A DNA stretch of 64,000 nucleotides from Alphaproteobacteria bacterium (GTDB taxonomy: Bacteria; Pseudomonadota; Alphaproteobacteria; Micavibrionales; UBA2020). Position numbers and translations under genes: made by a program. The notes beneath the pieces are model-generated. The model had not been told where the DNA came from. It saw only the letters and a program-made list of their open reading frames with translations, and ran no database searches. This document shows, one piece after another, positions 1,491-18,688 of this stretch; positions within the stretch are counted from its first letter, which is position 1, and each line of letters opens with the position of its first letter. The DNA lies in the NCBI GenBank assembly GCA_025934695.1, contig JAICWS010000001.1, positions 151,301 through 215,300 on the forward strand. Direction: 5' to 3'.

Positions 1491-1510
1491 GCCGAATTCT
1501 CATTATCTAT

Positions 1511-1539
1511 TTGACATAATAACAAGAATAGCATAAAGT
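1511..1539 (+). promoter_or_regulatory. sigma70-type promoter
   Basis: TTGACA (1511-1516), 17-nt spacer, TAAAGT (1534-1539), upstream of the 1673 gene. Confidence 0.4.
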
Positions 1540-1672
1540 GTTGCCCAAGCAGTGGGTATCTCTGCGGCCCGGGCGTGTTTAGCGTTTCCCGTCCAGTCCG
1601 ATCAGCCCGACCTGTAAAACAAGCTGAAAATTTGTCCTTTGTTTGCGTACCGAACGTGCGAAAGGAAACGCC

Positions 1673-2173: not shown

Positions 2174-2186
2174 AAACGAAATCTTT

Positions 2187-2816: not shown

Positions 2817-2829
2817 GCGCGAAAAAAGA

Positions 2830-3252
2830 TCACACGCCTTTGCGGCGCTCGACCCATTCCAGCACCTTGTTGAGGTGGTCGGTCAGGTCGCTTTCGCTGC
2901 AGGGGCGCGGAATATAACCGTTCGCGCCTTCCTTCATGATTTCATTGATGGACGTCGGGTCGTTCTCGGTGGAGGTGAGGACGATGGCGACGTTCTCATA
3001 GGCGGGATCCTGGCGGCAGGCCTTCAGCAGGTCGAGGCCCGTGCCATTGGGCATTTTCCAGCCGGTGATGATGATGTCATAGGTTGTCGCCTGCATTTTT
3101 TCGACGGCGGGAATGACGCCCTGCGCCTGGTCGATCTTGGCGAACCCCAGGCCGCTCAGCGTGCGCTCGAGCTGGCTGCGGCTGGCGCGCATGTCGTCGA
3201 TCAGCAGCACCTTGAGATCGGGGACTTTCAGGTTGGTTCTGAGTTGCGGCAT
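2830..3252 (-). CDS. CheY-like single-domain receiver protein lacking the phospho-acceptor Asp
   Basis: Aligns gap-free with CheY. The DD pair (LLIDDM) and the Thr87 equivalent are present. The acceptor site reads ITGWKMP versus CheY ISDWNMP (Asp to Gly), and the Lys109 position is Arg (YIPRP). Confidence 0.8.
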   Translation of the reverse strand: MPQLRTNLKVPDLKVLLIDDMRASRSQLERTLSGLGFAKIDQAQGVIPAVEKMQATTYDIIITGWKMPNGTGLDLLKACRQDPAYENVAIVLTSTENDPTSINEIMKEGANGYIPRPCSESDLTDHLNKVLEWVERRKGV

Positions 3253-3357
3253 GGCGTGACACTTTCTCGTCCGGATGGAGAAGCGGGTAGATAGTTCATA
3301 ATATCATCATGTCCGGGCCTTGCGGTCAAATTCTTGGTGGAGGCGTAATCCGGAAAA

Positions 3358-4629
3358 TTATTCAGTCAGGATCACTTTGCCGTTGCCGATGTCCTTTGTG
3401 CCAAGACCGCTGCAGCTGTCGCCGACTGAGGGATTGCCGTGGAAGGTGATTGTTTTGGCGATGATCTTGGAGCAGTTCGAGGCCGTGAAGCCGGTGTTTC
3501 CCCCGTAATCGAGCGAGCGCGAGGGCGTGTAGAAGACGCCCGTGAATTCCGTCGAACTGTTCCCGGTGAGCGTATTGCCAGTGGAGGAGGCGGGCGCATC
3601 GCGGTCCTGGTAGACGACGATGCCCGCGTAATCTCCGGTTGTCGGCGCGGTCAGATAGGTCGAGACGTTTCCGCTTAAGGAAATGTTGCCATAGGTGCCG
3701 TAAGATGAGCCGCCGCTGTTGGTCAGGATAATCGTCACGTTCTGGCCCGTGATGGTCAGGTTCCCGCTGCCCGAGAAGCTGCCGCCGTCGAGGATGTAAG
3801 TGCCGGGTGCCATGTTGAGAGTCGTGTTGCCTGACAGCGAGATTCCGCCGCAATAGACGCCCGGCGAAATATTATGCGTACCGTTGCCGTTGAACTTCGT
3901 CGGGCCCGCCGCCTGCTGCGACGGGGTGCAGCTCGTATAGGAATCGATGCTGAGGCTGGCGTAAGGATCCGTCACCGCGCGGCCATTCGTCGTCAGGCTG
4001 GAATAATTGAAGCTGACGTTGCCGACGTCGGAATAGTTGCCGACGAGGTTCACCGCGCCTACTGTCACGTCGACGTTCCCGTTCATATAGAACGCCGTGC
4101 TGCTGTTGGAATTGTCGGCCACGCCGCAGGTCGTGTCGATGTTCACGTTGCCCGAGGTTTTGATGGCTTGCGACGCAGACGGGTCCAGGCTCAGGAAGCA
4201 ATAGGGCCCGCCGCTTTGCTCGCCGGCCGTCGCCGAAGCCTGCGCGATGGGTTCGACGCTCGTGAACAGGGCGCCAAACATCGTATTCAGTTTCTCGGTC
4301 AGCGCCGCCTTGACGGAGGGCCGCCCGTTCGAATCCGTCGAGAAGGTGAAATCGATCGTGTTGCTACTGTTATAGACCCAGCCGTTGTCTTCGGCGGCGC
4401 GGGTGCCGGAATCCTCCGCCTGGTATTGCGAGCGCCCGTTGACCATGTCGAAGGTGGCAGACAGCGCGGCCGCGTCCGCCGCGGTCTGGAGTTTTCTTTG
4501 CTGCATCATCCAGACGCTCAAATCGACGCCGAGCGCGCACATGCCGAGGATGACCGGAAGAAGAAGTGCGAAAACCACGGCGACCGAGCCGCTTTCCGCG
4601 CTGGCGAAGCACCTGGCTTTGATACCCAC
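3358..4629 (-). CDS. TadG-like (Flp-pilus-assembly TadE/G-like N-terminus) protein with Gly/Asn/Ser/Thr-rich repeats
   Basis: The N-terminus SGSVAVVFALLLPVILGMCALGVDLSVWMMQQRKLQTAADAAALSA matches the TadE/TadG-like motif. The remainder is repetitive GN/SG-rich sequence suggestive of a beta-helix. Confidence 0.6.
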   Translation of the reverse strand: MGIKARCFASAESGSVAVVFALLLPVILGMCALGVDLSVWMMQQRKLQTAADAAALSATFDMVNGRSQYQAEDSGTRAAEDNGWVYNSSNTIDFTFSTDSNGRPSVKAALTEKLNTMFGALFTSVEPIAQASATAGEQSGGPYCFLSLDPSASQAIKTSGNVNIDTTCGVADNSNSSTAFYMNGNVDVTVGAVNLVGNYSDVGNVSFNYSSLTTNGRAVTDPYASLSIDSYTSCTPSQQAAGPTKFNGNGTHNISPGVYCGGISLSGNTTLNMAPGTYILDGGSFSGSGNLTITGQNVTIILTNSGGSSYGTYGNISLSGNVSTYLTAPTTGDYAGIVVYQDRDAPASSTGNTLTGNSSTEFTGVFYTPSRSLDYGGNTGFTASNCSKIIAKTITFHGNPSVGDSCSGLGTKDIGNGKVILTE

Positions 4630-4921
4630 GACGTTGCCCCCCTGACTGGCGTTGCGTTGGTAGTGATCCGTTCCGTGCTGATAGTTCCAGTCTCGCCGAT
4701 TCGTCTTGAAAATGAGTTGAAAATGAGAAGGGGTTATTTAAAGTTTTATCAGTGGTTTAGCCAATGTCTGTGCAACTTCCGTGTTGCGGCATGATGGGGG
4801 ATGCACTTCCAAGTTGTTCAAAACGGGCCATTCCTGCATGCAGTAATACCCAGGAAGGGTGATGAAACTGCTGTAACGGTCTTGCGTTTGTCGTCTCGGA
4901 CAATTTCCAACAGGGCAGACC

Positions 4922-5374
4922 ATGGAACTCCACAGCAATTCCTTCAAGGCGGGGGCGAAGATACCGTCGAAGTTTACATGCGAAGGCGACGACACATCGC
5001 CCCATCTGTCATGGTTTGATGCGCCCAAGCGAACGCGCAGTTTCGCTGTCATCGTCGAGGATCCTGATGCGCCGAAGGGTATCTACACGCATTGGGTCGC
5101 TTACAATATTCCTCCAGACAAAGTCGAATTGAAGGAGGGTGCCGGAAACAATCCGGAAGACCATATACAGGGCCGGAACGATTTTGGCCAATTGCATTAC
5201 GGCGGCCCATGCCCGCCGCCGGGACATGGAGACCATCGTTACTTCTTTCACATTTTTGCGCTCGACAAGCTCCTCGACGTTCCAGCGGGGGCGAGCAAGG
5301 AAGAGGTCGAAAAGGCGATGAAGAACCACATCATCGACCATGCGCAGATCATGGGGAGGTTCGGACGGTTCTAG
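4922..5374 (+). CDS. YbhB/YbcL-family (PEBP, Raf-kinase-inhibitor-like) protein
   Basis: 150 aa. Motifs VEDPDAP, YTHWVAYNIP and GPCPPPGHGDHRYFFHIFALD are typical of bacterial PEBP. Confidence 0.85.
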   Translation: MELHSNSFKAGAKIPSKFTCEGDDTSPHLSWFDAPKRTRSFAVIVEDPDAPKGIYTHWVAYNIPPDKVELKEGAGNNPEDHIQGRNDFGQLHYGGPCPPPGHGDHRYFFHIFALDKLLDVPAGASKEEVEKAMKNHIIDHAQIMGRFGRF

Positions 5375-5571
5375 GCTGGTGGGAGTATCAATTTGAAATT
5401 ACTGATTGAATCCCAATTTTTGATCCGCGACTGGCGCTGCCCGTAAACCGTGCCCATAATCCAGAATCTTCTTGATTTTTGAGCAGTTTCCGCTATTTAT
5501 AGCCATTCCTGAAAGCAGCACCCCTGGAGGCTGGATCAGGAAGTTTAACAACTCATACAAGGATTATTACG

Positions 5572-6351
5572 ATGTCTAAAAACAAAACAGCGCTCGCGGC
5601 AGAAGCACGCGCGAAGGCCGGTAAGGGGGCCGCCCGTGCAGTACGCCGTTCTGGTAAGGTGCCAGGCGTGGTCTATGGCGACAACAAAGAACCCCTTCTG
5701 ATCTCCCTGTCGGACAAGGAACTCCGCATGGCGATGGGCAAAAAAGGCTTCTTCACCAGCCTTTGCGACCTCTCCATCGACGGCAAGCCTCATCTCGTCC
5801 TGCCGCGCGACGTTCAGGTCGACCCCGTATTTGACCGCCCCGAGCATGCAGACTTCCTGCGCGTCTCCGAGAAGACGATCATCCGCGTCCATGTGCCCGT
5901 GCGCGTCACGAACGAAAAAGCCAGCCCCGGCCTCGTCAAGGGCGGCGTGTTGAACCTCGTTCGCCACGAAATCGACGTGTATTGCAAAGCGACCGAGATC
6001 CCGAACGAATTCGTCGCCGACCTGACAGGTCTCGATGTCGGCCGCACGCTGCACATCTCCGACCTTAAGCTGCCCGAAGGCGTCAAGCCCGCCGTTCAGG
6101 GCAACTTCACCGTCATCACCATCGTCGCTCCGTCGGCTCTCAAGTCCGACGAAGAAGCCGCAGCAACCGCTGCTGCTCCGGGTGCGGAAGGTGCTGCTCC
6201 GGCGGAAGGCGCTGCTGCTCCCGCGGCTGGCGCTGCTCCGGCTGCCGGCGCTGCTGCTCCGGCGAAAGGTGCGGCTCCGGCCGCTGCTCCGGCGAAGGGC
6301 GCGGCTGCCGCAGCCCCCGCCAAAGGCGGCGACAAGGGTGGCAAGAAGTAA
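5572..6351 (+). CDS. rplY: 50S ribosomal protein L25 / general stress protein Ctc
   Basis: N-terminal RRSGKVPGVVYG... L25/Ctc domain, followed by a roughly 70-aa Ala/Pro/Gly/Lys-rich tail. Sits in the conserved position before pth. Confidence 0.9.
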   Translation: MSKNKTALAAEARAKAGKGAARAVRRSGKVPGVVYGDNKEPLLISLSDKELRMAMGKKGFFTSLCDLSIDGKPHLVLPRDVQVDPVFDRPEHADFLRVSEKTIIRVHVPVRVTNEKASPGLVKGGVLNLVRHEIDVYCKATEIPNEFVADLTGLDVGRTLHISDLKLPEGVKPAVQGNFTVITIVAPSALKSDEEAAATAAAPGAEGAAPAEGAAAPAAGAAPAAGAAAPAKGAAPAAAPAKGAAAAAPAKGGDKGGKK

Positions 6352-6376: not shown

Positions 6377-6964
6377 ATGCGGCTTTTCGTCGGATTGGGT
6401 AACCCCGGACCGAAGCATGCAATGAACCGCCACAATATCGGATTTATGGCGCTGGATGTCATACACCAGCGCCATAAATTTTCTCCGTGGTCGCAGAAGT
6501 TCCAGGGGCTCGTTTCCGACGGGATTATCGAGAACGAGAAGATCATCCTGCTCAAGCCCCAGACCTTCATGAACGTCTCCGGCCAGTCGGTCTATCCCTG
6601 CTCGTTTTTCTACAAGCTCAAGCCGGAAGAGATCGTGGTGTTCCATGACGAGCTCGACCTCGCGCCCGGCAAGATCCGCGTGAAGAAGGGCGGGGGGAGC
6701 GCAGGGCACAACGGCCTGAAGTCGATCGAGCAGAACCTCGGCCCCGAATTCTGGCGGGTGCGCCTCGGCATCGGGCGCACCGTGCCGGAAGATATCTCGC
6801 GCTACGTGCTGGGAGATTTCGTGCAATCCGAGGGCAAATGGCTGTTTCCCCTGCTGGCGGGCGTCGGCGAATATGCGCCGCTGATCGTCAAGGGCGACAT
6901 GGACGCCTATATGAGCAAGGTCGCGGCCAACGTGCCAGCCGAGGAAAAGCCGACAATCAACTAG
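6377..6964 (+). CDS. pth: peptidyl-tRNA hydrolase
   Basis: MRLFVGLGNPG...TRHNIGF-like motif (NRHNIGF) and HNGLKS motif. Confidence 0.93.
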   Translation: MRLFVGLGNPGPKHAMNRHNIGFMALDVIHQRHKFSPWSQKFQGLVSDGIIENEKIILLKPQTFMNVSGQSVYPCSFFYKLKPEEIVVFHDELDLAPGKIRVKKGGGSAGHNGLKSIEQNLGPEFWRVRLGIGRTVPEDISRYVLGDFVQSEGKWLFPLLAGVGEYAPLIVKGDMDAYMSKVAANVPAEEKPTIN

Positions 6965-8354: not shown

Positions 8355-8639
8355 ATGGTCCATCCCTTCAAGCCGAAAGCCCCGGCCGCCGCGCCGAACA
8401 GCTATGTCGTGTCGTCGAAAGGCGACTTCAACGCGATGCTGGAGGAAATCGCCGGCCTCGCGCTCCAGGAACACAAGACCGATATCTCCTGCAACGGCAT
8501 GCCCAATATCGGTACGGCCTTCGTCCAGTGCGACGCGGATTTCGCAGAGAAAATGAAACAGCTTCCCCATGTCAACCTTGTCGAGCCGGCCCGCTACCAG
8601 ATGCCGGGCGGCAAAATCGCGCCGAGCCCGAGACCTTAA
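8355..8639 (+). CDS. small protein with peptidase-inhibitor I9 (subtilisin-propeptide)-like pattern, copy 1
   Basis: 94 aa. SYVV...IGTAFVQCDADFAEKMKQLPHVNLVEP fits the I9 signature (YIV...GF.a.l....l..lP.V..VEpD). GAGG lies 6 nt before the ATG. No signal peptide. Confidence 0.5.
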   Translation: MVHPFKPKAPAAAPNSYVVSSKGDFNAMLEEIAGLALQEHKTDISCNGMPNIGTAFVQCDADFAEKMKQLPHVNLVEPARYQMPGGKIAPSPRP

Positions 8640-8645
8640 AAACCC

Positions 8646-8984
8646 ATGGCCAAGCCCAACCAGTCATCCATCGTGCCCGACAGCTATCTGGTGATGGCGA
8701 GGCGGCCGCGCCGGCCTAAGAAGGGCAAGCTGTCGGAAGTTTTCCCGGGCGAGACCGACGTCGCACAGTCTACCCGCAAAATGGTCGATGAAATCCGCAA
8801 GCTCGCCCGCAAGCACGGCGAAACGATTTTGATCGAGACCGGCAACCTTGCCGATATGGGCGTGGCTAAGCTCAAATGCGACCGGCATTTTGCCGATCTG
8901 GTCAAAAAGCTGCCCTGCGTTGCGCATGTCGAGCAGGAGCGCATGGTGTATCCGCCGAACAAGAATCCGAAGTTCAACCTGTGA
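8646..8984 (+). CDS. small protein with peptidase-inhibitor I9-like pattern, copy 2
   Basis: 112 aa. SYLV...MGVAKLKCDRHFADLVKKLPCVAHVEQE shows the same pattern as the upstream ORF. Starts 6 nt after its stop. Confidence 0.5.
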   Translation: MAKPNQSSIVPDSYLVMARRPRRPKKGKLSEVFPGETDVAQSTRKMVDEIRKLARKHGETILIETGNLADMGVAKLKCDRHFADLVKKLPCVAHVEQERMVYPPNKNPKFNL

Positions 8985-9475
8985 CTGACCGCATCAAATC
9001 CTTCAAAGAATTCTGGCCCTATTACCTGAAAGAACATTCCAAGCCCGCCACGCGCAAAATCCACGTCGCGGGCACGGCGGGCGCCATCGGGCTTATGGGC
9101 CTCGGCCTGGCCACGGGTCAGCTGTGGCTGCCGCTGGCCGGCATCGGCGTCGGTTACGGCTCCGCCTGGACAGCGCATGCCTTCGTTGAAAAGAACAAGC
9201 CTGCGACCTTCACCTATCCGCTCTGGTCGCTGATGGGCGACGTCAAGATGCTGGGCCATTGGGTTACCGGCACGCTGCAGAGGGAAGTCGACAGGCACCT
9301 GGGCCCTAAGCCGCCGGAGGCGCAGCAACCGTTGCCCGCGTCCACACCCGGCAAATCCTTCATGCAGCGGGTGAGGGGACTGAAGCAGCAGTTCGTCGAG
9401 GCCGTGACTTTTAAAAAGTCCGCACCCAAAGCGAAACCCGCGCCGAAATTTCAGCCGCCTGCGCCCAAGCCTTGA
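8981..9475 (+). CDS. Mpo1-like / DUF962-like membrane protein
   Basis: GTG 8981 overlaps the upstream stop (GTGA). EFWPYYLKEHSKPATRKIH..., two helices, then HAFVEKNKPATFTYPLWSLMGD resemble DUF962. The ORF-track start 8876 would overlap the previous gene. Confidence 0.5.
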   Translation: MTDRIKSFKEFWPYYLKEHSKPATRKIHVAGTAGAIGLMGLGLATGQLWLPLAGIGVGYGSAWTAHAFVEKNKPATFTYPLWSLMGDVKMLGHWVTGTLQREVDRHLGPKPPEAQQPLPASTPGKSFMQRVRGLKQQFVEAVTFKKSAPKAKPAPKFQPPAPKP

Positions 9476-9867
9476 GCAGCCTGCGCAAGACCTTCTGCAC
9501 CAACGCCTACCGCGTCATCAAGGACGGCCGGGAGCATATCCTGTTCTGGGCGATCATTACCTCCGGCCTCGATCCCGAAAAGGCCTTCGTGACCGAGCAT
9601 GATCTTTTCGCGGGAACATGCTCGTCCCATCCCGTCGCCGACCAGATGCCGCATGCGGATGCGTTCCGGCGCATCGTCGAGATCGAACGCGAGGCGGCTG
9701 CAAAATATCCTGTCGCCGGCGATGAGGCCTTCAAGAATCCCTCGGTGAACTGGCAACGGGAAGACATGGCACCTTGGCAGGAGCATCCGATGTACCAAAA
9801 AGAAATCAAGGACGAGGCGATGCGCCGCCTACGCGCAAAGAAGCCGCCGGGATTTGGGCTGAAATAG
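9472..9867 (+). CDS. hypothetical protein
   Basis: 131-aa ORF. TTG start overlaps the upstream stop (TTGA). No family recognised. Confidence 0.4.
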   Translation: MSSLRKTFCTNAYRVIKDGREHILFWAIITSGLDPEKAFVTEHDLFAGTCSSHPVADQMPHADAFRRIVEIEREAAAKYPVAGDEAFKNPSVNWQREDMAPWQEHPMYQKEIKDEAMRRLRAKKPPGFGLK

Positions 9868-9879: not shown

Positions 9880-10350
9880 TTACGGGTTGGGCTGTTTGAG
9901 CTTGAGCGGCCGATTGACGCGGATGTGCGAGGGGGGCGGGGCTGCGGCCGCCGCTGACAGGAGGTCGGCCGTTTCCTTGAGCCGCTCCGCGAAATCCGCA
10001 TCCTTTTCCTTGAGCGGTCTGTGCAGATCCACCAGCGCGGCAAGCACGGAGTTATAGAGCGTGATGCTGTTGGAGGACATGTCCAGATTCATGTGCAAGG
10101 TCTTCACCTGTTCCGCCGCCTCGCCGAATTTGCCCTCGGTGATCAGGTCCTGCGCGGTTTGCAGGTCGGCTGCCCGGTCGCGGAACCATGCCGCAGTGTG
10201 CACATTGTAAGGGCTTTCAAGAAAGCCTCTCATTACAATCGCGGAAAATCTGCCGCGCTTGCGGCTGGATTTCTCAATGATGGCGTTAAAGTCTTCCTTG
10301 AGGCTGGTCAGATTGTCGGCTGCCGTCTCGGCGCTCTTCATGACATCCAT
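9880..10350 (-). CDS. hypothetical helical protein
   Basis: ORF 9880-10383. ATG at 10348-10350 preferred because GGAG lies 6 nt upstream (rc of 10357-10360). Confidence 0.5.
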   Translation of the reverse strand: MDVMKSAETAADNLTSLKEDFNAIIEKSSRKRGRFSAIVMRGFLESPYNVHTAAWFRDRAADLQTAQDLITEGKFGEAAEQVKTLHMNLDMSSNSITLYNSVLAALVDLHRPLKEKDADFAERLKETADLLSAAAAAPPPSHIRVNRPLKLKQPNP

Positions 10351-10451
10351 ATGCTTCTCCATAAGATAGCAGGAGGCTAACATGAGATGCCCGACGCGTC
10401 AAAATAATTATGTAAATAAAAGGATAGCCTCTTGTCGAAGCTCATAATCAT

Positions 10452-10582: not shown

Positions 10583-11197
10583 ATGGCTAAACGTCCACAA
10601 GTCAAACACAAAATTGACCGCCGCCTTGGCGTCAACCTCTGGGGCCGCCCCAAATCTCCGTTCAACAAGCGCGAATACGGTCCCGGCCAGCACGGCCAGA
10701 ACCGTAAAAAGCCCACCGACTACGGTGTGCAGCTCCATGCGAAGCAGAAGCTGCGCGGCTATTACGCGAACATCGGCGAGCGCCAGTTCTACCGCTATTA
10801 TGAAGAAGCGCGCCGCCGCAAAGGTGACTCCGGCCACAATCTGGTCGAGCTGCTCGAGCGCCGCCTGGACGCCGCGATCTATCGCATGAAATTCGTTCCC
10901 ACCGTATTCGCCGCGCGCCAGTTCGTGAACCACGGCCACGTGAAGGTGAACGGCAAGCGCATCACCGTCCCGTCCTATTCGCTGAAAGACGGCGACACCA
11001 TCGAAATCCGCGAAAAGAGCCGCACGCTCGCACTCTACATCCAGGCGACTGAAGCTCCCGACCGCGAAGTCCCCGGCTATTGCGAAGTCGACCACAAGGC
11101 CGGCACGGGCAAGTTCGTCCGCGGCCCGAAACTGGAAGAGGTCCCGTACCCCGTCCAGATGGAGCCGAACCTCATCATCGAATTCTATTCGCGTTAA
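10583..11197 (+). CDS. rpsD: 30S ribosomal protein S4
   Basis: 204 aa. [19 protein letters not shown]... N-terminus and S4 RNA-binding domain ([11 protein letters not shown]). Confidence 0.95.
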
Positions 11198-11213
11198 TCT
11201 TCGCGCAGGGTTC

Positions 11214-11250
11214 AAAAAAAGCCGCTCCGAAAGGGGCGGCTTTTTTATTT
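11214..11250 (+). terminator. rho-independent terminator after rpsD (A-run/T-run flanked)
   Basis: AAAAAAA-GCCGCTCC-GAAA-GGGGCGGC-TTTTTTATTT. Confidence 0.75.
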
Positions 11251-11268
11251 GCGCGCCTATGGCGATGG

Positions 11269-11297
11269 TTGACATATCCAGGAAATATTATTATACA
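11269..11297 (+). promoter_or_regulatory. sigma70-type promoter of paralogue 1
   Basis: TTGACA (11269-11274), 17-nt spacer, TATACA (11292-11297). Confidence 0.45.
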
Positions 11298-11324
11298 TAA
11301 CGTAATAATAAGGAGATCTTCCCG

Positions 11325-11945
11325 ATGTTTTTCAGGCAATACCGCGACAATAAAAGGCAGACAGCCGCCGAGGCGCGCCAAAAAATGATCGATGCCGTGC
11401 AGACGCGTATCGATGCTGCCGCCAATATCATGGATCCGTCCGAAAAACTGCTGACGCTCGAGCAAATCGGCCAGGATATCGCTGCGCAGAAGTATGACAT
11501 CGAGAAGACGGCCCGTCTTGCGGGCGAGAACCGCTCTATGCTGGCAGCGCTGGGCACGGGGACGGCAGTCATCAGCATCGGCTTCGGCATCGTGTCGGTC
11601 TGCGCTTGTCCACCGGCCTTTATGCTGCTGGCGGTGCTTCCCGGCTGCATCGGCGGCATCGCCGCCGGCCAGAAAGTCAAAGACACCATTCGCGGCCATG
11701 CGCAGGAAGAGGTGCAAGCTTCCCTTGAGGCGATGGAAGGAAAGCGCGCCGCGCTTCAAGCCATGTCCGACGTGATCGTTCGTGAAAATCTCGAGGCTCT
11801 TGTCGCCTCGCCGCACTTCGCTGAATTGCGCGAGAAATCCGGGCTGAAGGAAAGCTTCATGAACGCCCTGGAAAAACGCATCGCCGGCAACGACGCCGTG
11901 CCCGCGGCCGCGCCGAAAAAGTCCGAAGGCGGGCTGAACCTTTAA
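11325..11945 (+). CDS. hypothetical membrane-hairpin protein, tandem paralogue 1
   Basis: 206 aa. Basic N-terminus MFFRQYRD, DPSEKLLTLEQ, two adjacent hydrophobic helices joined at CPP, then SPHFAELREK. Aligns along its whole length with the next two ORFs. Confidence 0.6.
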   Translation: MFFRQYRDNKRQTAAEARQKMIDAVQTRIDAAANIMDPSEKLLTLEQIGQDIAAQKYDIEKTARLAGENRSMLAALGTGTAVISIGFGIVSVCACPPAFMLLAVLPGCIGGIAAGQKVKDTIRGHAQEEVQASLEAMEGKRAALQAMSDVIVRENLEALVASPHFAELREKSGLKESFMNALEKRIAGNDAVPAAAPKKSEGGLNL

Positions 11946-11969
11946 AGATTCCACCCGATTTTCCGTCTC

Positions 11970-11997
11970 TTGACATGTTGACATAAGCCTTTAACAT
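11970..11997 (+). promoter_or_regulatory. sigma70-type promoter of paralogue 2
   Basis: TTGACA (11970-11975; a second TTGACA at 11978-11983), 16-nt spacer, TAACAT (11992-11997). Confidence 0.4.
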
Positions 11998-12020
11998 GCT
12001 CTTCGATCAAGGAGCATGCG

Positions 12021-12644
12021 ATGTTTTTCAAGAAGCGACGCGACGCCAAAAAAGCGGCCGAAGCGGATGCGCGCCAGCAGGTCGTCAAGGACTTGCAGGA
12101 GCGTTTCGATACGGCCATGAACTGCACCGACCCGGCCGAAAAATTCATGAAGCTCGAGGAAATCCGCGAGATGGTCGACGCGGCGACAGGCACGCTGAAA
12201 GGCAATATCGTCAAGAGAGCGGGCGAGAACGGCCAGTTCACCTTCCTAGGCTCGATGAGCGCGGGCACGGCTGGCGCCTGGGTTATTGCCGGGCTGCATT
12301 TCCCGCCGCTGCTAGGCCTGGTCGGCATCGTCGCCGGCATGTACGGCGGCCTTTATGCCGCCAAGGGAATGGTCACGCATTCCGCCCGCAAGCAAATGGA
12401 ACACAATAAGCCTTTCATCGACGCGCTCGAGGCCGAAAAGGCGAAAGCTGTCGCCGCCGCCGACGAGGTTCTCGACAAGCGCCTGCGCGACATGGCCTCA
12501 TCGCCGAAGTTCGGCGAGCTGGTCGACAAGGTGCCGCGTGTGCGCGAAGCCTTCACGAAGGCCTACGGCAGGAAAATCGCCGAGGAAAACGCTTTCGATA
12601 CCGAGCAGAAGAAGCGACCGCGGGACAACGGCTTCCGGCCTTGA
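12021..12644 (+). CDS. hypothetical membrane-hairpin protein, tandem paralogue 2
   Basis: 207 aa. MFFKKRRD, DPAEKFMKLEE, hydrophobic hairpin with FPP, SPKFGELVDK, C-terminal GFRP. GGAG lies 6 nt before the ATG. Confidence 0.6.
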   Translation: MFFKKRRDAKKAAEADARQQVVKDLQERFDTAMNCTDPAEKFMKLEEIREMVDAATGTLKGNIVKRAGENGQFTFLGSMSAGTAGAWVIAGLHFPPLLGLVGIVAGMYGGLYAAKGMVTHSARKQMEHNKPFIDALEAEKAKAVAAADEVLDKRLRDMASSPKFGELVDKVPRVREAFTKAYGRKIAEENAFDTEQKKRPRDNGFRP

Positions 12645-12697
12645 CTATTTTAACATAAGATTGGAACCTGTCCGCGCGGCCGCGGCATTATGGACGC

Positions 12698-12725
12698 TTG
12701 ACTTGTTGCCATAAGCCGATAGCAT
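12698..12725 (+). promoter_or_regulatory. sigma70-type promoter of paralogue 3
   Basis: TTGACT (12698-12703), 16-nt spacer, TAGCAT (12720-12725). The ORF-track ATG 12724 lies inside the -10 box, which supports the 12769 start. Confidence 0.4.
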
Positions 12726-12768
12726 GCCTGCACGTACACCAACTTCGGATAAAGATCGGGGACATGCC

Positions 12769-13386
12769 ATGAAATGGTTCAAGTCGAAAGCTGCAAAGCG
12801 CGCGGAAATGGAAGAGGCGCGGCAGGGCATCCTCGATGGTTTCCAGCGCCAGATCGAAGAGGCCGAAAAAACCGCCGATCCCGCCGAACGTTTCCTGAAA
12901 CTCGAAGAGTGCAGGGATTCCATCGACCAGGTCCTTGCCGCGACGAAGGGCCAGATCGGCCGCGCGGCGGTCGATAAAGGCCAGAACGCCTATCTCGGCA
13001 TCGCGGGCAGCGCGACCGTCGGCACCGGCGTCCTCGTTATCGGCATGCATTTCCCGCCGGCGCTGCTGTTCCTGGCATGGCCCGGCATCTTCGCCGGTAT
13101 TTTCGCCCGCAAGAGCGCCACGGACAATGCGAACGCGCGGATGCTTCAGGAGGCGCGTCCGTTCTTCGACCGTCTCGAGGCCACGAAGGGCCGCGCCGAG
13201 GTTGCCGCCGACATGATCCTCAAAAACAATCTGACCGACCTTGCGACCTCGCCGCGCTTCGACGATATCGTCAAAAAGGCGCCGCGCGTCCGCGACCATT
13301 TCACTGCGGCTTTCGCCCGTGAAATCGCGAAGAAAGAGAATCCGAAAGATTCCAGACCCAATCCGGGCAACGGCTTCAGGCTCTGA
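12769..13386 (+). CDS. hypothetical membrane-hairpin protein, tandem paralogue 3
   Basis: MKWFKSKAAKR, DPAERFLKLEE, hairpin with FPP, SPRFDDIVKK, C-terminal GFRL. GGGGA lies 6 nt before ATG 12769. Confidence 0.6.
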   Translation: MKWFKSKAAKRAEMEEARQGILDGFQRQIEEAEKTADPAERFLKLEECRDSIDQVLAATKGQIGRAAVDKGQNAYLGIAGSATVGTGVLVIGMHFPPALLFLAWPGIFAGIFARKSATDNANARMLQEARPFFDRLEATKGRAEVAADMILKNNLTDLATSPRFDDIVKKAPRVRDHFTAAFAREIAKKENPKDSRPNPGNGFRL

Positions 13387-13480
13387 CGCCTGTCGCCTCG
13401 CGGCGATTTTTGCCTTTAGACGCAGTCACATGGTGACATTTCCGGCTGGCACGAGTTGCGCCGTTTGCACCTTGTCCTAT

Positions 13481-14773
13481 ATGATGGAAGTATCTGCATT
13501 TCCCCGCGAAGACGGTCGCATGTTGACACCGGAACTCACGCTCCAGCAAGACGCCTACCGGACGCATATCGCTTACCGGTTTTTCGGCGACCATGTCGAA
13601 TATACGATTGTCGACGGCCGGGGCGACCGGGCCTCCTTCAGCGTCAAATACGAGGATGCGCCCTCGCGCTTCGACTATCGCACCTTCGAGCCCTACCGTC
13701 CCGTCGCACCCCTCCAGCTCTGCGTCCTGATGACGCTGGCGCTGTGCCTGATAGTTCTCTATCCGGACAACTCGCTTGAAATGCTGGGCGCCGTCGCGGC
13801 ATCCGGCGGGATATCCATGGGCCTGACGCACTGGCTGCGCCGGAGCCGCTTTCGCAAGCTCTATACGTCCATGCCGACGCGCAACGGCAAGCTGTTGATC
13901 CTGCGCGACGGGCGGCACGATGCGATCGTCCGTGAAATCGAGACGCGCCGCCTCCAGGCGCTGCGCAAATACGCGATGTCCGACGCCCTCGACGCGCCGC
14001 AAGCGGCGATCCGCCGCCTGCGCTGGCTGAAGGAAGAAGGCGCCATCAATGCGCTTGAGTTCGACAGATATCGCCGCGCGCTGGGTCCGGTCTCTCTTTC
14101 GCCCGATCCCTTGCCGGACGACTATGACACGGCGCCGCTGCGGCTGACGCAGAATGCATATCGTTTCCATTCCGTGTTTTCTTTCGAACCCGATCACCTG
14201 CGCTGCGAGGCCTTCGACGGTTCGCTGTCGGCTTTCAACGTCCATTACCGCGACCTGCCGCATCCGACCGAATACCGGACCGTGACGAAGCGGGAAGGAC
14301 TGGCGGCGCTCGTCCTGTGCCTGGTGACGCTGCTGGGAATGGCCTTGGTCAATATCGTGGCGGGCAATCATTATTACGAGACCGCCGCCGGCGCACGCCA
14401 GATGCTGACGGCGGCGACCATATATGTCTGCGCCTCCGCGTTTCTCGTCTTCGGCGCGCGGCGCCAGGCGCGCAAGGAATTCACGCTGGTGCCGGTCGCG
14501 ATCAAAGGCGTTACGATCCGTGTGCTGAAGGACGCGCAGCACGATCGCATCATCGGCGAAATGCAGAACCGCCGCCTTGCCGCGCTTCGCACCCAGGCCG
14601 TCATCGACCGCGCCAACTCGCCCCAAGGCGAACTGCGCAAATTCATATGGCTGAAAGAGCAAGGCGCCATCACCGACCGCGAGTTCGAGGATTTCCGGCA
14701 GCGGTTGATGGACAGGGTGTCCGAACGCCAGTCCGTGCCATCAGCGCGGCCACCGTCTGAAACACTGCATTAA
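13481..14773 (+). CDS. internally duplicated membrane protein with two SHOCT-like motifs
   Basis: Two homologous halves: L.Q.AYR..., hydrophobic helices, LKDGRHD/LKDAQHD, RRL.ALR, then LRWLKEEGAINALEFDRYRRAL or FIWLKEQGAITDREFEDFRQRL. Start uncertain (13481, 13484 or 13520). Track start 13241 overlaps the previous gene. Confidence 0.55.
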   Translation: MMEVSAFPREDGRMLTPELTLQQDAYRTHIAYRFFGDHVEYTIVDGRGDRASFSVKYEDAPSRFDYRTFEPYRPVAPLQLCVLMTLALCLIVLYPDNSLEMLGAVAASGGISMGLTHWLRRSRFRKLYTSMPTRNGKLLILRDGRHDAIVREIETRRLQALRKYAMSDALDAPQAAIRRLRWLKEEGAINALEFDRYRRALGPVSLSPDPLPDDYDTAPLRLTQNAYRFHSVFSFEPDHLRCEAFDGSLSAFNVHYRDLPHPTEYRTVTKREGLAALVLCLVTLLGMALVNIVAGNHYYETAAGARQMLTAATIYVCASAFLVFGARRQARKEFTLVPVAIKGVTIRVLKDAQHDRIIGEMQNRRLAALRTQAVIDRANSPQGELRKFIWLKEQGAITDREFEDFRQRLMDRVSERQSVPSARPPSETLH

Positions 14774-14873: not shown

Positions 14874-15545
14874 ATGTTCAATTTCAAAAACAAACTTTCC
14901 CGGATGTTCCAAAGCGCGCAAACGAACCAGCTCGAAACGCTGTCGGAAGCGGCCGATGCCGGCAATGAGGCGGAAGTCGCGCGCATCCTGCGCCACCCCA
15001 AAGGAAATGTTTACAGGCTGATCGAAGACGCCGCCTTTGCCGCCCTCGATCGCGGCAATGAAACGGGCTGGAAGACGCTGGTCGATTGCACCGCGGAACT
15101 GGCCAAGCCCCTCGATGCGGATTCGAAAACCTACCTGTTCCGGCAACTCTTTTTCGGCAATGCCGGTTATCGCGGCACGCCCGCCATGGTCGACACCGTG
15201 CTGACGGCGGTGGAAAAGAACGGGCTCGGCGTCGAATTCGACATGGACAAGCAACTGGCCTTCTTCGTGGGCGGGTCTGACAAAGACCCGAAATTCTCCG
15301 CCATCTCCGACATCCTCATCAAGCATGGCGCGAACCTCGACAAGCTCCCGGCGATTTATGGCGACTGGATCACGCAGACGACCCAAAACTGGGACAAGAC
15401 CATCGGCGAAGCCCAGGCCGAGGTCGACGTCTTGAAACAGCGCAAGGAAGCCGGGCTAACCAACCTGAATGAAAGCGCGGAAGCCGCGAAAAAATTCACC
15501 GCCGCGCGCAAGCCTGCGTCGCCCACGCCGGGCAATACGCCGTAA
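14874..15545 (+). CDS. hypothetical protein
   Basis: 223-aa ORF with its own promoter. The segment EAADAGNEAEVARILRH is weakly ankyrin-like. No family recognised. Confidence 0.5.
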   Translation: MFNFKNKLSRMFQSAQTNQLETLSEAADAGNEAEVARILRHPKGNVYRLIEDAAFAALDRGNETGWKTLVDCTAELAKPLDADSKTYLFRQLFFGNAGYRGTPAMVDTVLTAVEKNGLGVEFDMDKQLAFFVGGSDKDPKFSAISDILIKHGANLDKLPAIYGDWITQTTQNWDKTIGEAQAEVDVLKQRKEAGLTNLNESAEAAKKFTAARKPASPTPGNTP

Positions 15546-15658
15546 GGGCGCGCATAACGTAAGGCAGCAGGCCCAGCCTTTTCAATGAATTGGCGGTGAT
15601 AACGGCTTTTTTACCCGCCTCACCTTATAATAGTGCTGGACGATGGCAGGGAGCCCGG

Positions 15659-16531
15659 ATGACCGGCATCGACAAGAGCATCGCAAAGGAATTCAATGAC
15701 GAGTCCGCGCTAACGCGTCCGGACCCGATGACCGATGCGGAATATGCGGCTGCTTTCGCCAGAATGGCGACGGATTACTTCACCGCCGCGACGTCGGCCG
15801 AGCTTCCGCAGCTTCTTTATGTGACGGGACTGCCCGGCGCCGGCAAAAGCACCTACGTGAAAAACGCCATGTCGGAGCGCCCCGAGCTTGCGGGCTTTGT
15901 GCATATCAATTTCGACGATCTGCGGATATATCATCCGCGCTATGCCCGGCATGTCGCGCAGGATCCGCTGAACGCCGCCGCGCGCATCGATACGGCGGTC
16001 GAAGGTCTCATCGGCTGGCTAAGCGAAGAGGCTGCGCGCCGCCACGTGAATGTCCTGCTCGATGACGCCGCCATAGGAGCGGGAATGACGGAGATGATCC
16101 TGTCGCCGTTCCAGAAACAGGGATATGCCATCGAGGCGGCGGTGATCGCTACGCCTTCGTCCATCGCGCGGCAGGCCGTACACCTGCGGTTCGAGGAGAA
16201 TTTCGCCGTGGCGCAGCGCGGGGAGCCCGTCATACCTCGCTGGGTCAATACCGCCGAACAGGACAATGCGCCGGCCGCGCTCGTGGAAACGGTCGAAACG
16301 CTCGCCGACAAGGGAATTTCCGGCAAGCTTTCCGTGATCACGCGGGATGCCCGCGTTTTATATGAAGGGAACGCCAGCCCCGACGCATCCAAAGCCGTGC
16401 GCGAAGAAATGACGCGGGAGTTGACGGATCCGGAAAAAACGTCCTACCAGTCTGCTGCCGCGCGCATCGCGGCGCTCGTCAATCTCCGGATGAAGGCGAT
16501 TGGCCCGTCAGCCCATCAGCCGAAGCCCTGA
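15659..16531 (+). CDS. zeta-toxin-family P-loop kinase-like protein
   Basis: Walker A LYVTGLPGAGKST followed by a FDDLR... layout typical of the zeta toxin / AAA_33 kinase fold. ATG 15659 follows GGGAG. Confidence 0.55.
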   Translation: MTGIDKSIAKEFNDESALTRPDPMTDAEYAAAFARMATDYFTAATSAELPQLLYVTGLPGAGKSTYVKNAMSERPELAGFVHINFDDLRIYHPRYARHVAQDPLNAAARIDTAVEGLIGWLSEEAARRHVNVLLDDAAIGAGMTEMILSPFQKQGYAIEAAVIATPSSIARQAVHLRFEENFAVAQRGEPVIPRWVNTAEQDNAPAALVETVETLADKGISGKLSVITRDARVLYEGNASPDASKAVREEMTRELTDPEKTSYQSAAARIAALVNLRMKAIGPSAHQPKP

Positions 16532-16561: not shown

Positions 16562-17347
16562 TCACTTCCAGCTGCGCTTGCCCGCGAGGCACGACAGGAT
16601 GCCGTGGAACGTGCGCACGTCCTGCTTCGTCATGCCCGAGCGGAAGAAGAAGTTGCGGATATTGCGCATGATGGTGGGACGCTGCTCGGGGCTGCGGAAA
16701 AAGCCGCCCTTGGCGATCTCGTCTTCAAGGTGACCCATCAGGTTCTCGATATCGCCCTTCTGCGCGGGTTCGGTGTCCCCCAGCGAACGCTCGATCTCCA
16801 TCAGCTTGAATGGATTGTCCGCCGTGAGCCAGGCGTAGCAGGCCAGCAGCACCGCCTGCGCGAGGTTCAGCGATGAAAAGCCGGGATTGAGCGGGATATT
16901 CAAAATCGCATCGGACAGCGCGACATCGTCGTTTTCGAGGCCCGTGCGCTCGGGGCCGAACAGGATGCCGCATTTCTGCGTTTTCGCGGCGTTCTTTTCG
17001 TGGATCAGCTTTGCCGCGGCTTCGGCCGTGCAAATGTCCTTCACGACGCCCCGGTTACGCGCCGTTGTGGCCAAAACATATTCGAGGTCGGCCACGGCTT
17101 CCTTGGTCGTCTCATAAAGCTTCGCGTTTTCGAGGATGCTCGCGGCTCCCGACGCGGCAGAGACCGCAGCCGGGTTCGGCCAGCCGTCGCGCGGTTTGAC
17201 GATGCGCAGTTCGGTGACCGCGCAATTCAGCATCGCGCGGGCGCACATGCCGATGTTCTCGCCCAGCTGCGGATGAACGAGGATGACGGCAGGCCCGAGC
17301 GGCGCGGTATCGGGCAGGGTGCCTCTTGCTGTGTTGGTTCCGGCCAT
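16562..17347 (-). CDS. SpoU/TrmH-family RNA 2'-O-methyltransferase (TrmJ/LasT-like)
   Basis: ENIGMCARAM, FGPERTGL and LNLAQAV SPOUT motifs. Starts 4 nt after the gltX stop. Confidence 0.8.
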   Translation of the reverse strand: MAGTNTARGTLPDTAPLGPAVILVHPQLGENIGMCARAMLNCAVTELRIVKPRDGWPNPAAVSAASGAASILENAKLYETTKEAVADLEYVLATTARNRGVVKDICTAEAAAKLIHEKNAAKTQKCGILFGPERTGLENDDVALSDAILNIPLNPGFSSLNLAQAVLLACYAWLTADNPFKLMEIERSLGDTEPAQKGDIENLMGHLEDEIAKGGFFRSPEQRPTIMRNIRNFFFRSGMTKQDVRTFHGILSCLAGKRSWK

Positions 17348-17350
17348 TGC

Positions 17351-18688
17351 CTACGCCGCTTTCAGACGCTCCAGCACGCGTTCGCGGCCGATGAGGGGCA
17401 GCAGCTCCTTCAGCTCGGGACCATGGTCCTGTCCGGTGATGGCGGCGCGCAGCGGCATGAAGAGTTCCTTGCCGCGGCGGTTGGTCTTGAGCTTGATCTG
17501 GTCGACCCATTTTTGCCAGGTGGTATTGTCCCAGGGATCGGTCGGCAGCAGGTCGGCCGCGATCTTCGCGAAATCCGCGTCCTGGATCACCGGCTGGACC
17601 GGGCCTTTCGCCACCTGCCACCATTCCTTGATGTCGGAAAGGATCTCGAGGTTCGGGCGGACGGCGTTCCAGAAATGCTCGTCGATTTCGGCGAGGCCGA
17701 GCGCCGCGAGGCGATCCTTCACCGCCGCGAAGGGCGTCTGGTGCAGGATTTTCGCGTTGAGACGATAGAGCTCGTCCTCGTCGAATTTGGGCAGGTTACG
17801 CGAGAATTTCGAGAAATCGAAGCTGTCGATGACCTCCTGCATGGAGAACAAAGGCTCGATCGGATCCGACGTGCCGATGCGCGCGACGAGGGAGATCAGC
17901 GCCATCGGCTCGATGCCGACTTCCTCGCGCAGGCTCTTGATGCCGAAGCCGCCCTTGCGCTTGGAGAGCTTGCCGCCTTCCATGTCGCCCAGCAGCGTGA
18001 CGTGCGCGAACTGCGGCGGCGTCGCGCCGAGCGCCTCGAACATCTGCTTGTGGCAGGCGGTGTTGGTCACATGGTCTTCGCCGCGCACGATGTGCGTGAT
18101 CTTGAAGTCGATGTCGTCGATGACCGAGCAGATGTGATAGAGCGGACGCCCGTCTTCGCGCACGAGCACGGGGTCCGACATATCCTTGCCGTGGAATTCC
18201 ACGTCGCCGCGCACGAGATCGTGCCATTTGATCGGCTCATGCAGCAGCCTGAAGCGCCAGTGCGGCTTGCGTCCTTCGGCCTCAAATTTCGCCCGCTGTT
18301 CGGGCGTCACGTTCAGCGCTTCGCGGTCGTAGATCGGCGGCAGCCCGCGGCTCAGCTGGACCTTGCGTTTCAGCGCGAGTTCTTCTTCCGTCTCATAGCA
18401 GGGATAGAGGCGGCCGTTGTCTTTAAGCTTCTGGATCGTGCACTCGTACTCTGCGGAGCGGTCGCGCTGGCGGGCAAAGCTGTCCCAGTTCAGGCCGAGC
18501 CACTTCAAGCCTTCCATGATGTCTTCGGTATTTTCTTCCTTCGAGCGCACCAGGTCCGTATCGTCGATACGGAGCATGAAAGTGCCCTTGTTCTTGCGCG
18601 CCCAGAGCCAGACGATCAGCGCGGTGCGCGCGCTGCCAACATGGAGCTTCCCGGTGGGGCTGGGTGCAAATCTTCCTGCGACGGTCAT
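17351..18688 (-). CDS. gltX: glutamate--tRNA ligase (short, 445-aa paralogue)
   Basis: RFAPSPTGKLHVGSART (HIGH region) and KLSKR (KMSKS). Confidence 0.92.
   Translation of the reverse strand: MTVAGRFAPSPTGKLHVGSARTALIVWLWARKNKGTFMLRIDDTDLVRSKEENTEDIMEGLKWLGLNWDSFARQRDRSAEYECTIQKLKDNGRLYPCYETEEELALKRKVQLSRGLPPIYDREALNVTPEQRAKFEAEGRKPHWRFRLLHEPIKWHDLVRGDVEFHGKDMSDPVLVREDGRPLYHICSVIDDIDFKITHIVRGEDHVTNTACHKQMFEALGATPPQFAHVTLLGDMEGGKLSKRKGGFGIKSLREEVGIEPMALISLVARIGTSDPIEPLFSMQEVIDSFDFSKFSRNLPKFDEDELYRLNAKILHQTPFAAVKDRLAALGLAEIDEHFWNAVRPNLEILSDIKEWWQVAKGPVQPVIQDADFAKIAADLLPTDPWDNTTWQKWVDQIKLKTNRRGKELFMPLRAAITGQDHGPELKELLPLIGRERVLERLKAA

Follow-up and report, generated by a model that had tools for sequence, protein, structure and literature searches.

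A stretch of about 40 hydrophobic residues with a proline at its center classically gives rise to a transmembrane helical hairpin, as known from turn propensities in model hairpins, and small hairpin proteins of the Mic10, CURT1/CurT, and ATP synthase e/g types have functions that depend on oligomerization. Two other described systems have a similar design. The chlamydial Inc proteins have a bilobed hydrophobic hairpin of ~40 to 60 residues between helical, coiled-coil-prone flanks (PMC3656976, PMC3290821); they are type III-secreted effectors of the obligate intracellular Chlamydiae, and the hairpin is usually near the N terminus. The heads of the tripartite alpha-pore toxins (AhlB, SmhB, Hbl L1, and Nhe; likewise ClyA/HlyE) have long antiparallel helices, a Gly/Ala-rich hairpin, and a central proline turn. 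Here we describe three consecutive genes, copies 1 to 3 (c1, c2, and c3), in a 64,000-nucleotide (nt) stretch of an alphaproteobacterial genome (GenBank assembly GCA_025934695.1, contig JAICWS010000001.1, positions 151,301 to 215,300), referred to below as the window. Their products belong to a family of small helical-hairpin proteins that are most likely located in the producer's own inner membrane rather than injected into a host.

Three tandem paralogs and their protein family

As the initial annotation had proposed, c1, c2, and c3 are consecutive paralogs of about 205 amino acids (aa) that can be aligned over their whole length. Identities are 39% for c2-c3 (BLASTP E values of 1e-32 to 1e-40 with the database size set to 1e8), 30% for c1-c3 (E 8e-18), and 29% for c1-c2 (E 1e-13 to 1e-21); the paralogy is far beyond chance. 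The motifs quoted in that annotation are all present, i.e., the N termini MFFRQYRD, MFFKKRRD, and MKWFKSK, ARQ, the CPP/FPP turn, SPxF, and the GFRP/GFRL endings, with the correction that c3 has DPAERF, not DPAEKF. Guanine-plus-cytosine (GC) content at the three codon positions is about 0.63/0.44/0.75 (second position 0.42-0.47, third position 0.72-0.79), as in the window's real genes, and the codon usage is native. A ribosome-binding site lies 7 to 8 nt 5′ of each start codon. The open reading frame (ORF) of c3 is open from 12724 (220 aa) or 12769 (205 aa); position 12769 is the most likely start because public protein data include, through an NCBI record, exactly the 205-aa product but not the 220-aa form. 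While c2 and c3 are basic (isoelectric points of 9.4 to 9.5), c1 is near neutral.

Near the middle of each protein is a Gly/Ala-rich hydrophobic hairpin consisting of two lobes of 19 to 24 residues joined at a Pro-Pro turn. The second lobe of c2 has a glycine zipper, G102-x3-G106-x3-G110, as read from the sequence. This hairpin between long helices, first noticed in the three copies, holds across the family to which they belong. A word-indexed homology search gave only 17 to 18 relatives; the family was revealed by an exhaustive profile hidden Markov model (HMM) search over 1.84 billion cluster representatives, which found 400 representatives at E ≤ 1e-3, of which 210 also passed E ≤ 1e-10; nearly all are 200 to 250 aa long and match over their full length. 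To date, members are known only from Micavibrio-like Alphaproteobacteria, all uncultured, and from related proteobacterial metagenome-assembled genomes (MAGs), and a scan of viral contigs yielded no member.

Among 58 diverse members, the uncharged run has a median length of 41 aa (range, 27 to 55), with a proline in its central third in 55 and a Pro-Pro pair in 30. The 15 residues on either side of the hairpin carry net charges of +1.4 before and +2.2 after it, and a glycine-zipper-like motif, [GAS]xxxGxxx[GAS], occurs in 45 members. Family members thus have what generically marks a hairpin with both termini in the cytoplasm (N-in/C-in), i.e., ~40 hydrophobic residues, a central turn-promoting residue, and net positive charge on both flanks. 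The near-invariant positions are M1, D37, L45, S161, P172, F178, and A181. Conserved residues are helix caps and hydrophobic or core positions (D37-P38, S161-P162, P172, F178, and A181), and no catalytic-looking set is among the conserved family positions. The extreme N terminus, MFFKKR[RK][DE]AKK, is unusually conserved, and close relatives also share a C-terminal Pro/Lys linker that leads to G[FL]x[LF]. The N terminus, MFFKKRRDAKK, is not a signal peptide.

AlphaFold2 modeled c2 with a predicted local distance difference test score (pLDDT) of 80 from 17 sequences and 90.5 (predicted TM-score, 0.75) from 58 sequences. Both models are all-helical and have the same helices, at residues 2-33, 38-91, 96-153, 155-159, 164-170, and 172-197, with the turn at P95-P96; confidence is lowest at the hydrophobic tip (pLDDT, 63 to 77). 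A basic N-terminal helix (2-33) is followed by two long ones, 38-91 (~54 residues) and 96-153 (~58 residues), and then by two or three C-terminal helices and a Pro/Lys-rich tail. Where the two long helices meet the turn, ~20 residues at the end of the outgoing one and ~20 at the beginning of the returning one are uncharged and Gly/Ala-rich. In the models the helical hairpin would be ~85 Å long, with its distal ~30 Å hydrophobic, and judging from their lengths, the flanking helices could form a four-helix stalk of ~50 Å.

The family has no described relatives in the databases searched. No Pfam, NCBIfam, or PADLOC model fits c1, c2, or c3, which have no Pfam hit at E ≤ 0.1, and no Pfam family was matched by more than one of the 58 members. 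Matches to NCBIfam YdeI and to Pfam LTXXQ, ATP-synt_E, and Vps53_N were rejected as far below the cutoffs. Membership in an antiphage defense system was likewise not found with the PADLOC models: LeoBC (E 5.6e-4) and Unk_03 (E 1.5e-3) gave 17-bit matches to c2 only and none to c1 or c3. The remote-homology check that the initial annotation had called for also gave no significant relative. Foldseek with both models against PDB and against viral models (BFVD) had best E values of 0.05 to 0.09 with TM-scores of ≤0.41, and a PDB profile search gave nothing significant.

The locus between rpsD and gltX

The features of the region are collected in Table 1. Genes of the family lie directly 3′ of rpsD in 11 related genomes or contigs (loci L003, L005, L006, L007, L008, L011, L019, L020, and L021, the contig behind member P0009, and the window), and spoU/gltX come next in 10 of these; the exception is the short L020, the single locus given by a metagenome pattern scan with alignment A4. 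Two further loci, L009 and L010, cover the spoU/gltX side only. The initial annotation had suggested comparing copy numbers in related genomes, and this comparison gave 1 to 6 copies beside rpsD: three in the window, in L003 (FW300_bin.31), in the P0009 contig, and in L021 (there with an additional unrelated 248-aa FPP-hairpin protein); two each in L005, L007, and L008; one each in L006, L011, and L020; and six in L019 (GC content, 52%; rpsD 83% identical). The rpsD genes themselves are 83 to 96% identical across the related loci. The more distant members of the family occur singly and in unrelated surroundings, and a fourth paralog of FW300_bin.31, on another contig (L004), is of a short-lobed subtype with 15 to 17 residues per lobe. 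By the gene lengths in its gene table, Micavibrio aeruginosavorus has other small genes in the same rpsD frame and no gene of ~620 nt.

Table 1. Features of the array, its surroundings, and the ankyrin-repeat genes of the window (positions are those of the window)
Feature	Position	Strand	Description
rpsD (ribosomal protein S4)	10583-11197	+	Conserved upstream anchor; Pfam Ribosomal_S4/S4 on L001 ortholog
Intrinsic-terminator-like hairpin after rpsD	11220-11246	+	AGCCGCTCC-GAAA-GGGGCGGCT, then T run; read from sequence
c1 promoter-like element	11269-11297	+	TTGACA, 17-nt spacer, TATACA; read from sequence
Copy 1 (c1)	11325-11945	+	206 aa; CPP turn; ends GGLNL; pI 6.8; fastest-evolving copy
c1 hydrophobic hairpin	11535-11672	+	aa 71-116; 46-residue uncharged run; central PP; KD-19 maximum 2.21
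c2 putative promoter	11970-11999	+	TTGACATGTTGACATAAGCCTTTAACATGC; -35 TTGACA, 16-nt spacer, -10 TAACAT; consensus scan
Terminator-like stem between c2 promoter and start	11995-12018		Pairs with ribosome-binding site
Copy 2 (c2)	12021-12644	+	207 aa; FPP turn; ends GFRP; best-conserved copy
c2 hydrophobic hairpin	12228-12362	+	aa 70-114; 45-residue uncharged run; central PP
c3 putative promoter	12698-12727	+	TTGACTTGTTGCCATAAGCCGATAGCATGC; TTGACT-16-TAGCAT; consensus scan
Copy 3 (c3)	12769-13386	+	205 aa; MKWFKSK N terminus; FPP turn; ends GFRL
c3 hydrophobic hairpin	12979-13107	+	aa 71-113; 43-residue uncharged run; central PP
Terminator-like hairpin after c3	13391-13415	+	Stems 13391-13405 and 13392-13407, then TTTTTGCC / T run
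g4	13520-14773	+	417 aa; internally duplicated membrane protein; not a family member
g5 and zeta-toxin-like P-loop kinase	14874-16531	+	g5, 223 aa, without family; kinase 15590-16531, Pfam Zeta_toxin E 4e-23
spoU-type methyltransferase and gltX	16562-18688	-	Conserved downstream anchor
Ankyrin-repeat gene	26714-27334	+	
Ankyrin-repeat gene	32081-33412	-	

Orthology among the arrays follows type, not position. Gene 1 of L003 corresponds to c2 (57% identity) and gene 3 to c3 (53%), c1 has no counterpart in L003, and the six L019 copies cluster together. We calculated the ratio of nonsynonymous to synonymous substitutions per site (dN/dS) against L021, the closest relative. Partial rpsD is 96% identical (dN, 0.034; dN/dS, 0.12), c2 is 83% identical (dN, 0.11; dN/dS, 0.14), c3 is 53% identical (dN, 0.42; dN/dS, 0.30), and c1 is 40% identical (dN, 0.53; dN/dS, 0.36). 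The ratios for c1 and c3 are rough because dS is saturated (1.37 and 1.49). With a dN/dS of about 0.14, c2 is under purifying selection. Divergence is spread along the whole protein, and the N-terminal helix and the C-terminal helices are best conserved. Inheritance of the locus is vertical and chromosomal, and it is not an island. Flanked by highly conserved housekeeping genes and inherited vertically, the site is a hotspot at which copies are duplicated and lost, other genes are inserted, and sequences diverge fast.

The initial annotation also gave each copy its own promoter. Candidate sites for c2 and c3 were both recovered in a consensus scan (5 sites in 5.3 kb versus 1.8 expected), but the c1 element is outside the list because its −10 hexamer, TATACA, ends in A and not T. 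The c1 element is nevertheless positionally conserved, since the pattern TTGACATAT...ATTAT..ATAAC is kept upstream of the c1 ortholog in L021. The c2 and c3 promoters lie within a 30-bp element, TTGACwTGTTGmCATAAGsCnwTArCATGC, which occurs only twice in the window (0 expected). It also occurs upstream of the c2 and c3 orthologs in L021 (2740-2790 and ~1110-1150) and of array genes 1 and 2 in L003 (~5920-5960 and 6679-6699). The element, including its spacer, is better conserved between genomes than the proteins downstream; for c3, 28 of its 30 bases are identical between the window and L021, where the c3 proteins are 53% identical. With its spacer conserved, the element may be contacted by more than sigma-70 and may include an overlapping operator for a further regulator. 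By eye, neither an EcfG-type general-stress promoter nor a CtrA box was seen in the conserved promoter element. The promoters look sigma-70-like, and promoters of the CTTGAC-N17 type are the kind described for alphaproteobacterial housekeeping sigma factors.

For the window organism and its nearest relatives, one promoter per copy is plausible from these sequences. In distant relatives, a promoter-like site is found at the first gene only and the later copies follow at 17 to 30 nt, as in an operon; because of this spacing behind a single promoter, we take the copies to be co-expressed there. A hairpin equivalent to the terminator-like one after rpsD is present 3′ of rpsD in L003, L005 to L008, L011, and L021. 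The deduced c2 transcription start would fall in the left arm of the stem that precedes that gene.

Downstream of the array, g4 has an internal repeat (35% identity over 209 aa), with a two-helix hydrophobic segment in each half, and no Pfam or NCBIfam family. Orthologs of g4 follow the array in L001/L003 (59% identity) and in L021 (55 to 57%). By eye, each g4 repeat ends in a helix resembling SHOCT, for which there is no Pfam hit, and M. aeruginosavorus has a 1,305-nt hypothetical gene at the equivalent place. The g5 and zeta-like genes are absent between g4 and spoU in L021 and thus are an insertion relative to the closest relative. A promoter-like TTGACA-18-TAGACT at 14814 stands before g5, and a second zeta/AAA_33-like gene is at 45112-45717. 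Other neighbors were seen in the related loci. The 248-aa protein in the L021 array (1946-2692) has two hydrophobic hairpins, one with an FPP turn (ITILFPPASLL), and is unmatched by the family HMM. In L019, eight consecutive same-strand genes (2-6061; 147 to 298 aa) without a Pfam family stand upstream of rpsD. The short-lobed subtype, that of members P0012-P0016, is directly 3′ of a 341- to 342-aa ankyrin-repeat gene in both L004 (4747-6618) and L022 (7703-9445). A transfer RNA for selenocysteine called by ARAGORN within rpsD (11003-11088, reverse strand) was not confirmed by Rfam and is almost certainly a false positive.

The host organism is a Micavibrio-like alphaproteobacterium. GltX (17351-18688, reverse strand) is 88 to 93% identical to proteins of uncultured Alphaproteobacteria, its best named matches being "MAG: Micavibrio sp." (88% and 68% identity). 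Two blocks of window genes, gltX-spoU-...-rpsD and polysaccharide deacetylase-lexA-comEC-second gltX, are syntenic with M. aeruginosavorus ARL-13 (gene table in the supplement of PMC3189940). That organism is an obligate epibiotic predator of Gram-negative bacteria, not of eukaryotes; it is reported to possess type I and type II secretion and to lack types III and IV, and Micavibrio predators are thought to insert proteins into prey membranes (PMC3189940).

A Pfam scan of part of the window ORFs found no secretion-machine genes besides a TadE/G-like (Tad pilin-like) gene. The other scanned genes are mostly housekeeping, together with ComEC, two alpha/beta hydrolases, a GH5-like gene, and the two zeta-toxin-like kinases. 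The window has two glutamyl-tRNA synthetase paralogs on the reverse strand (17351-18688, 445 aa; 41437-42876, 479 aa), and M. aeruginosavorus likewise has two (GMV_1572 and GMV_1322). Two further genes are found between trigger factor and lon: one (21722-22834) for a 370-aa ClpP-domain protein that has long extensions and, just downstream of it, an unscanned 211-aa ORF (22956-23591), presumably the standard clpP.

Many lineage-specific window proteins have Pro/Lys/Arg-rich C-terminal tails. At least three prolines are present in the last 15 residues of 17 of 59 genes versus 4.6% of internal 15-mers, and at least seven Pro, Lys, or Arg residues in 10 of 59 genes versus 0.66% of internal 15-mers. 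Examples are at 8355-8639, 8876-9475, 9472-9867, 9880-10383 (reverse strand), 14874-15545, 15590-16531, 26714-27334, 28179-29231 and 29228-30268 (both reverse strand), 31524-32084, 45112-45717, 56323-57264 (reverse strand), and 57517-58395. The set includes c2, c3, one ankyrin protein, and two hydrolases; the latter and the neighboring GH5-like protein have no evident N-terminal signal peptide. The 131-aa protein at 9472-9867 has the tail RKPPGFGLK, which its orthologs conserve as RKPPKLGL. These tails could be a common targeting signal or merely disordered.

A probable membrane scaffold and the alternatives to it

We favor, with moderate confidence, a resident oligomeric scaffold in the inner membrane with both termini in the cytoplasm. 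Residence in the inner membrane is indicated by the ~40-residue hydrophobic stretch with its central proline, the positive flanks, the lack of a signal peptide, and the native chromosomal genes with CTTGAC-N17-type promoters. Homo- or hetero-oligomers are suggested by the glycine-zipper faces, the stalk deduced from the models, and the co-expressed paralogs. Membrane location, topology, and oligomerization are all properties that we infer; the data show directly the paralogy, the extent of the family, the predicted helices, the distribution of charge, and the conserved position in the chromosome. The proteins would be inserted cotranslationally into the producer's own cytoplasmic membrane, leaving the termini and the stalk cytoplasmic. 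The uncharged Gly/Ala-rich helix halves would pair as a tight transmembrane helical hairpin; the glycine-zipper hairpin faces and the stalk would drive oligomerization of the co-expressed paralogs; and the assembly would organize or shape the membrane or form a small conduit.

Several points weigh against such a scaffold. The four-helix packing of the stalk comes from helix lengths, and the topology from hydropathy, the positive-inside rule, and AlphaFold2. Much of the body is less conserved than the extreme N terminus and the C-terminal tail, which could be targeting signals. One subgroup (P0012-P0016, L004, and L022) has lobes of only ~15 to 17 residues, which are short for full spans and would suit a hairpin of the re-entrant or monotopic kind. 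At equal evolutionary distance, c1 and c3 (40% and 53% identity) diverge far faster than rpsD (96%); both this divergence and the variation from one to six copies are seen more typically in proteins engaged in interactions or arms races than in housekeeping scaffolds. The initial annotation had held that an ordinary pair of inner-membrane helices in a family with a known housekeeping role would speak against host targeting; the helical hairpin does look ordinary, but the family has no known housekeeping role. We rejected a ribosome-linked role (compare YqjD/ElaB, which bind ribosomes and are anchored in the membrane), for which adjacency to rpsD is the sole argument; distant members are in unrelated contexts.

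A more specific version of the scaffold, which we consider rather unlikely as stated, is a hairpin that organizes curvature or membrane domains in the manner of Mic10, CURT1/CurT, or reticulon-type wedges, its oligomers, joined by Gly-rich faces, bending or partitioning the cytoplasmic membrane, for example at the prey-attachment pole. The hairpin is essentially loopless, Gly-rich small-xxx-small faces are common, several paralogs are co-expressed, and the conserved residues are structural rather than catalytic; the 15- to 17-residue lobes of the short-lobed subgroup would also fit. Yet at E ≤ 1 the window copies matched none of the Pfam models for such proteins, and their own lobes of 19 to 24 residues are enough for ordinary spans.

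The initial annotation had likened the proteins to Incs and, citing ankyrin-repeat genes in the window, suggested as a speculation that they could be targeted to host membranes. Two such genes are indeed present (Table 1), but by themselves they do not demonstrate an association with a host. The likeness to Incs is structurally apt, as the uncharged stretches around the central Pro-Pro (46, 45, and 43 aa) are within the length of the bilobed Inc domain; membership in an Inc family such as IncA is another matter, as no Inc-named family was among the Pfam hits of the 58 members, and no type III genes were among the ORFs scanned against Pfam in these 64 kb of the genome. Targeting to a host membrane gained no support: the organism is Micavibrio-like, the scanned ORFs include no secretion-machine gene besides the Tad pilin-like one, the genes have native codon usage and a fixed place among housekeeping genes, and the hairpin flanks are net positive.

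More broadly, it is unlikely that the proteins are exported to insert into prey or host membranes, whether as Inc-like decorators or as small alpha-helical pore formers. The order of an amphipathic helix, a Gly-rich hydrophobic hairpin with central proline, and a second amphipathic helix is the architecture of the AhlB/SmhB head, and toxins of the ClyA family recurred among the best subthreshold matches. With Foldseek these were AhlB, SmhB, AhlC, and MakA (E 0.09 to 0.6; for the best, E 0.09 to 0.18 with TM-scores of 0.20 to 0.30), and in the PDB profile search they were SmhB (E 0.1), Hbl L1 (0.67), AhlB (2.4), Nhe L1 (4.8), and MakA (5.3). The local profile alignment to SmhB covers residues 159-236 of its head, and Pfam HlyE matched 1 of the 58 members (E 0.0018). 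All the toxin matches are nonsignificant (TM-score ≤0.30, E ≥0.07), and Foldseek, PDB profiles, and Pfam gave no significant resemblance to the ClyA fold in sequence or structure; because the hits are mutually related Gly/Ala-rich hairpins, composition explains them.

Export would also accord with the fast evolution of c1 and c3 and the variable copy number, with tandem paralogy, in which the genes of those toxins also occur, and with relatives that are predators thought to place proteins in prey membranes (PMC3189940). Pro/Lys-rich C-terminal tails are shared with window ankyrin and hydrolase genes without an evident signal peptide, and one paralog type adjoins an ankyrin gene in L004 and L022. 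Against this, the proteins are ~205 aa long rather than the 320 to 370 aa of the ClyA family, and they have neither a signal peptide nor an RTX or type I-like acidic C terminus (c2 and c3 have isoelectric points of 9.4 to 9.5 and c1 of 6.8). By the positive-inside rule, their flanks should lead to capture in the membrane of the producer itself; no export machinery was among the scanned window ORFs; the cultured relative is reported to lack type III and IV secretion (PMC3189940); and the locus has a fixed place in the chromosome and is inherited vertically.

An ion or solute channel of the inner membrane with two helices per subunit (compare MscL, CorA, and MCU) appears similarly unlikely. The glycine-zipper helices of several assembled hairpins would line the pore, the cytoplasmic helical bundle would act as gate or regulator, and the paralogs would give heteromeric or differently gated channels. 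The N-in/C-in arrangement would suit a channel, as would the long helices that in the models continue from the cytoplasmic bundle into the membrane and the basic cluster right after the second helix, as in CorA and MscL; glycine zippers, found in 45 of the 58 members, are over-represented in homo-oligomeric channels. But the turn consists of Pro-Pro or Gly-Pro alone; it lacks a conserved selectivity motif, polar or acidic, and has no equivalent of GMN or DxxE, and the hairpin interior has no conserved polar residue. No sequence or fold match to channel families was found beyond ExbB and MotA at TM-scores of about 0.3, and hairpins are only 33 to 43% identical between c1 or c3 and their orthologs, which would be unusual for a pore lining.

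Also unlikely, in our estimate, is an export-competent mini alpha-pore former or Inc-like module that epibiotic predators put into a prey or host membrane; under such prey insertion the MFFKKR N terminus, the Pro/Lys-rich tail, or both may be a lineage-specific export signal and the array of one to six copies a fast-evolving arsenal. That the genes are chance ORFs or were called on the wrong strand in GC-rich DNA, as the long antisense ORFs at 11175-11984 and 12688-13299 (both reverse strand) might suggest, has a negligible probability: it is refuted by hundreds of full-length homologs and by dN/dS values below 0.4, and the codon-position GC pattern, which agrees with the forward-strand frames, and the ribosome-binding sites before each start also contradict it.

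If the genes do encode an inner-membrane scaffold, they add a well-defined family, with ~400 representatives and no Pfam, NCBIfam, or PDB relative, to the catalog of bacterial membrane hairpins. They would also mark the rpsD-spoU/gltX interval as a hotspot of recombination or duplication in Micavibrio-like bacteria, whose cell biology and predation mechanism are hardly known. The family is tractable, the proteins being small, strongly predicted, and easily expressed. Should they instead be exported and enter prey membranes, the family would supply candidates for the factors, sought for a long time, with which epibiotic predators open a feeding junction.

Comparison with known systems

The helical-hairpin membrane protein is a known class, in which the present family is unannotated. 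Proteins of the C19orf12 type are also small and helical, with a central Gly-rich hydrophobic hairpin and a Pro-Pro turn, and one of the 58 members matched Pfam PF20721 (C19orf12-like) at E 3.8e-4. We rejected homology in this case, because hhalign of the family profile against the human sequence gave 4% probability over 27 columns; the resemblance is at the level of a motif.

Mic10, CURT1/CurT, and ATP synthase e/g resemble the window proteins in being small, often paralogous proteins with a tight two-helix hairpin and Gly-rich faces. There is no sequence relationship with them, the only trace being ATP-synt_E (E 0.15, c2), and unlike the Mic10 and CurT types, the window proteins are predicted to have much larger cytoplasmic helical domains. 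MscL, CorA, and MCU share the N-in/C-in arrangement, the helices continuous from a cytoplasmic bundle, and the basic cluster after the second helix; in contrast to these channels, the window family lacks a periplasmic loop and a selectivity motif at its turn, and it matches them in neither sequence nor fold.

As in the Incs, there are many paralogs with little sequence conservation. Unlike in the Incs, the hairpin is central (residues ~70 to 115) and the N terminus is a conserved Lys/Arg-rich basic helix; in sequence the two groups are not similar. ClyA-family toxins are also encoded as tandem diverged paralogs; they have a five-helix tail. The arrays described here comprise one to six copies that all have the full hairpin. 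In the models, the two long helices (38-91 and 96-153) carry the hydrophobic hairpin at their tip, in the manner of the ClyA-family head. Although homology is not supported, the hairpin module may, by analogy of architecture, work like a toxin head.

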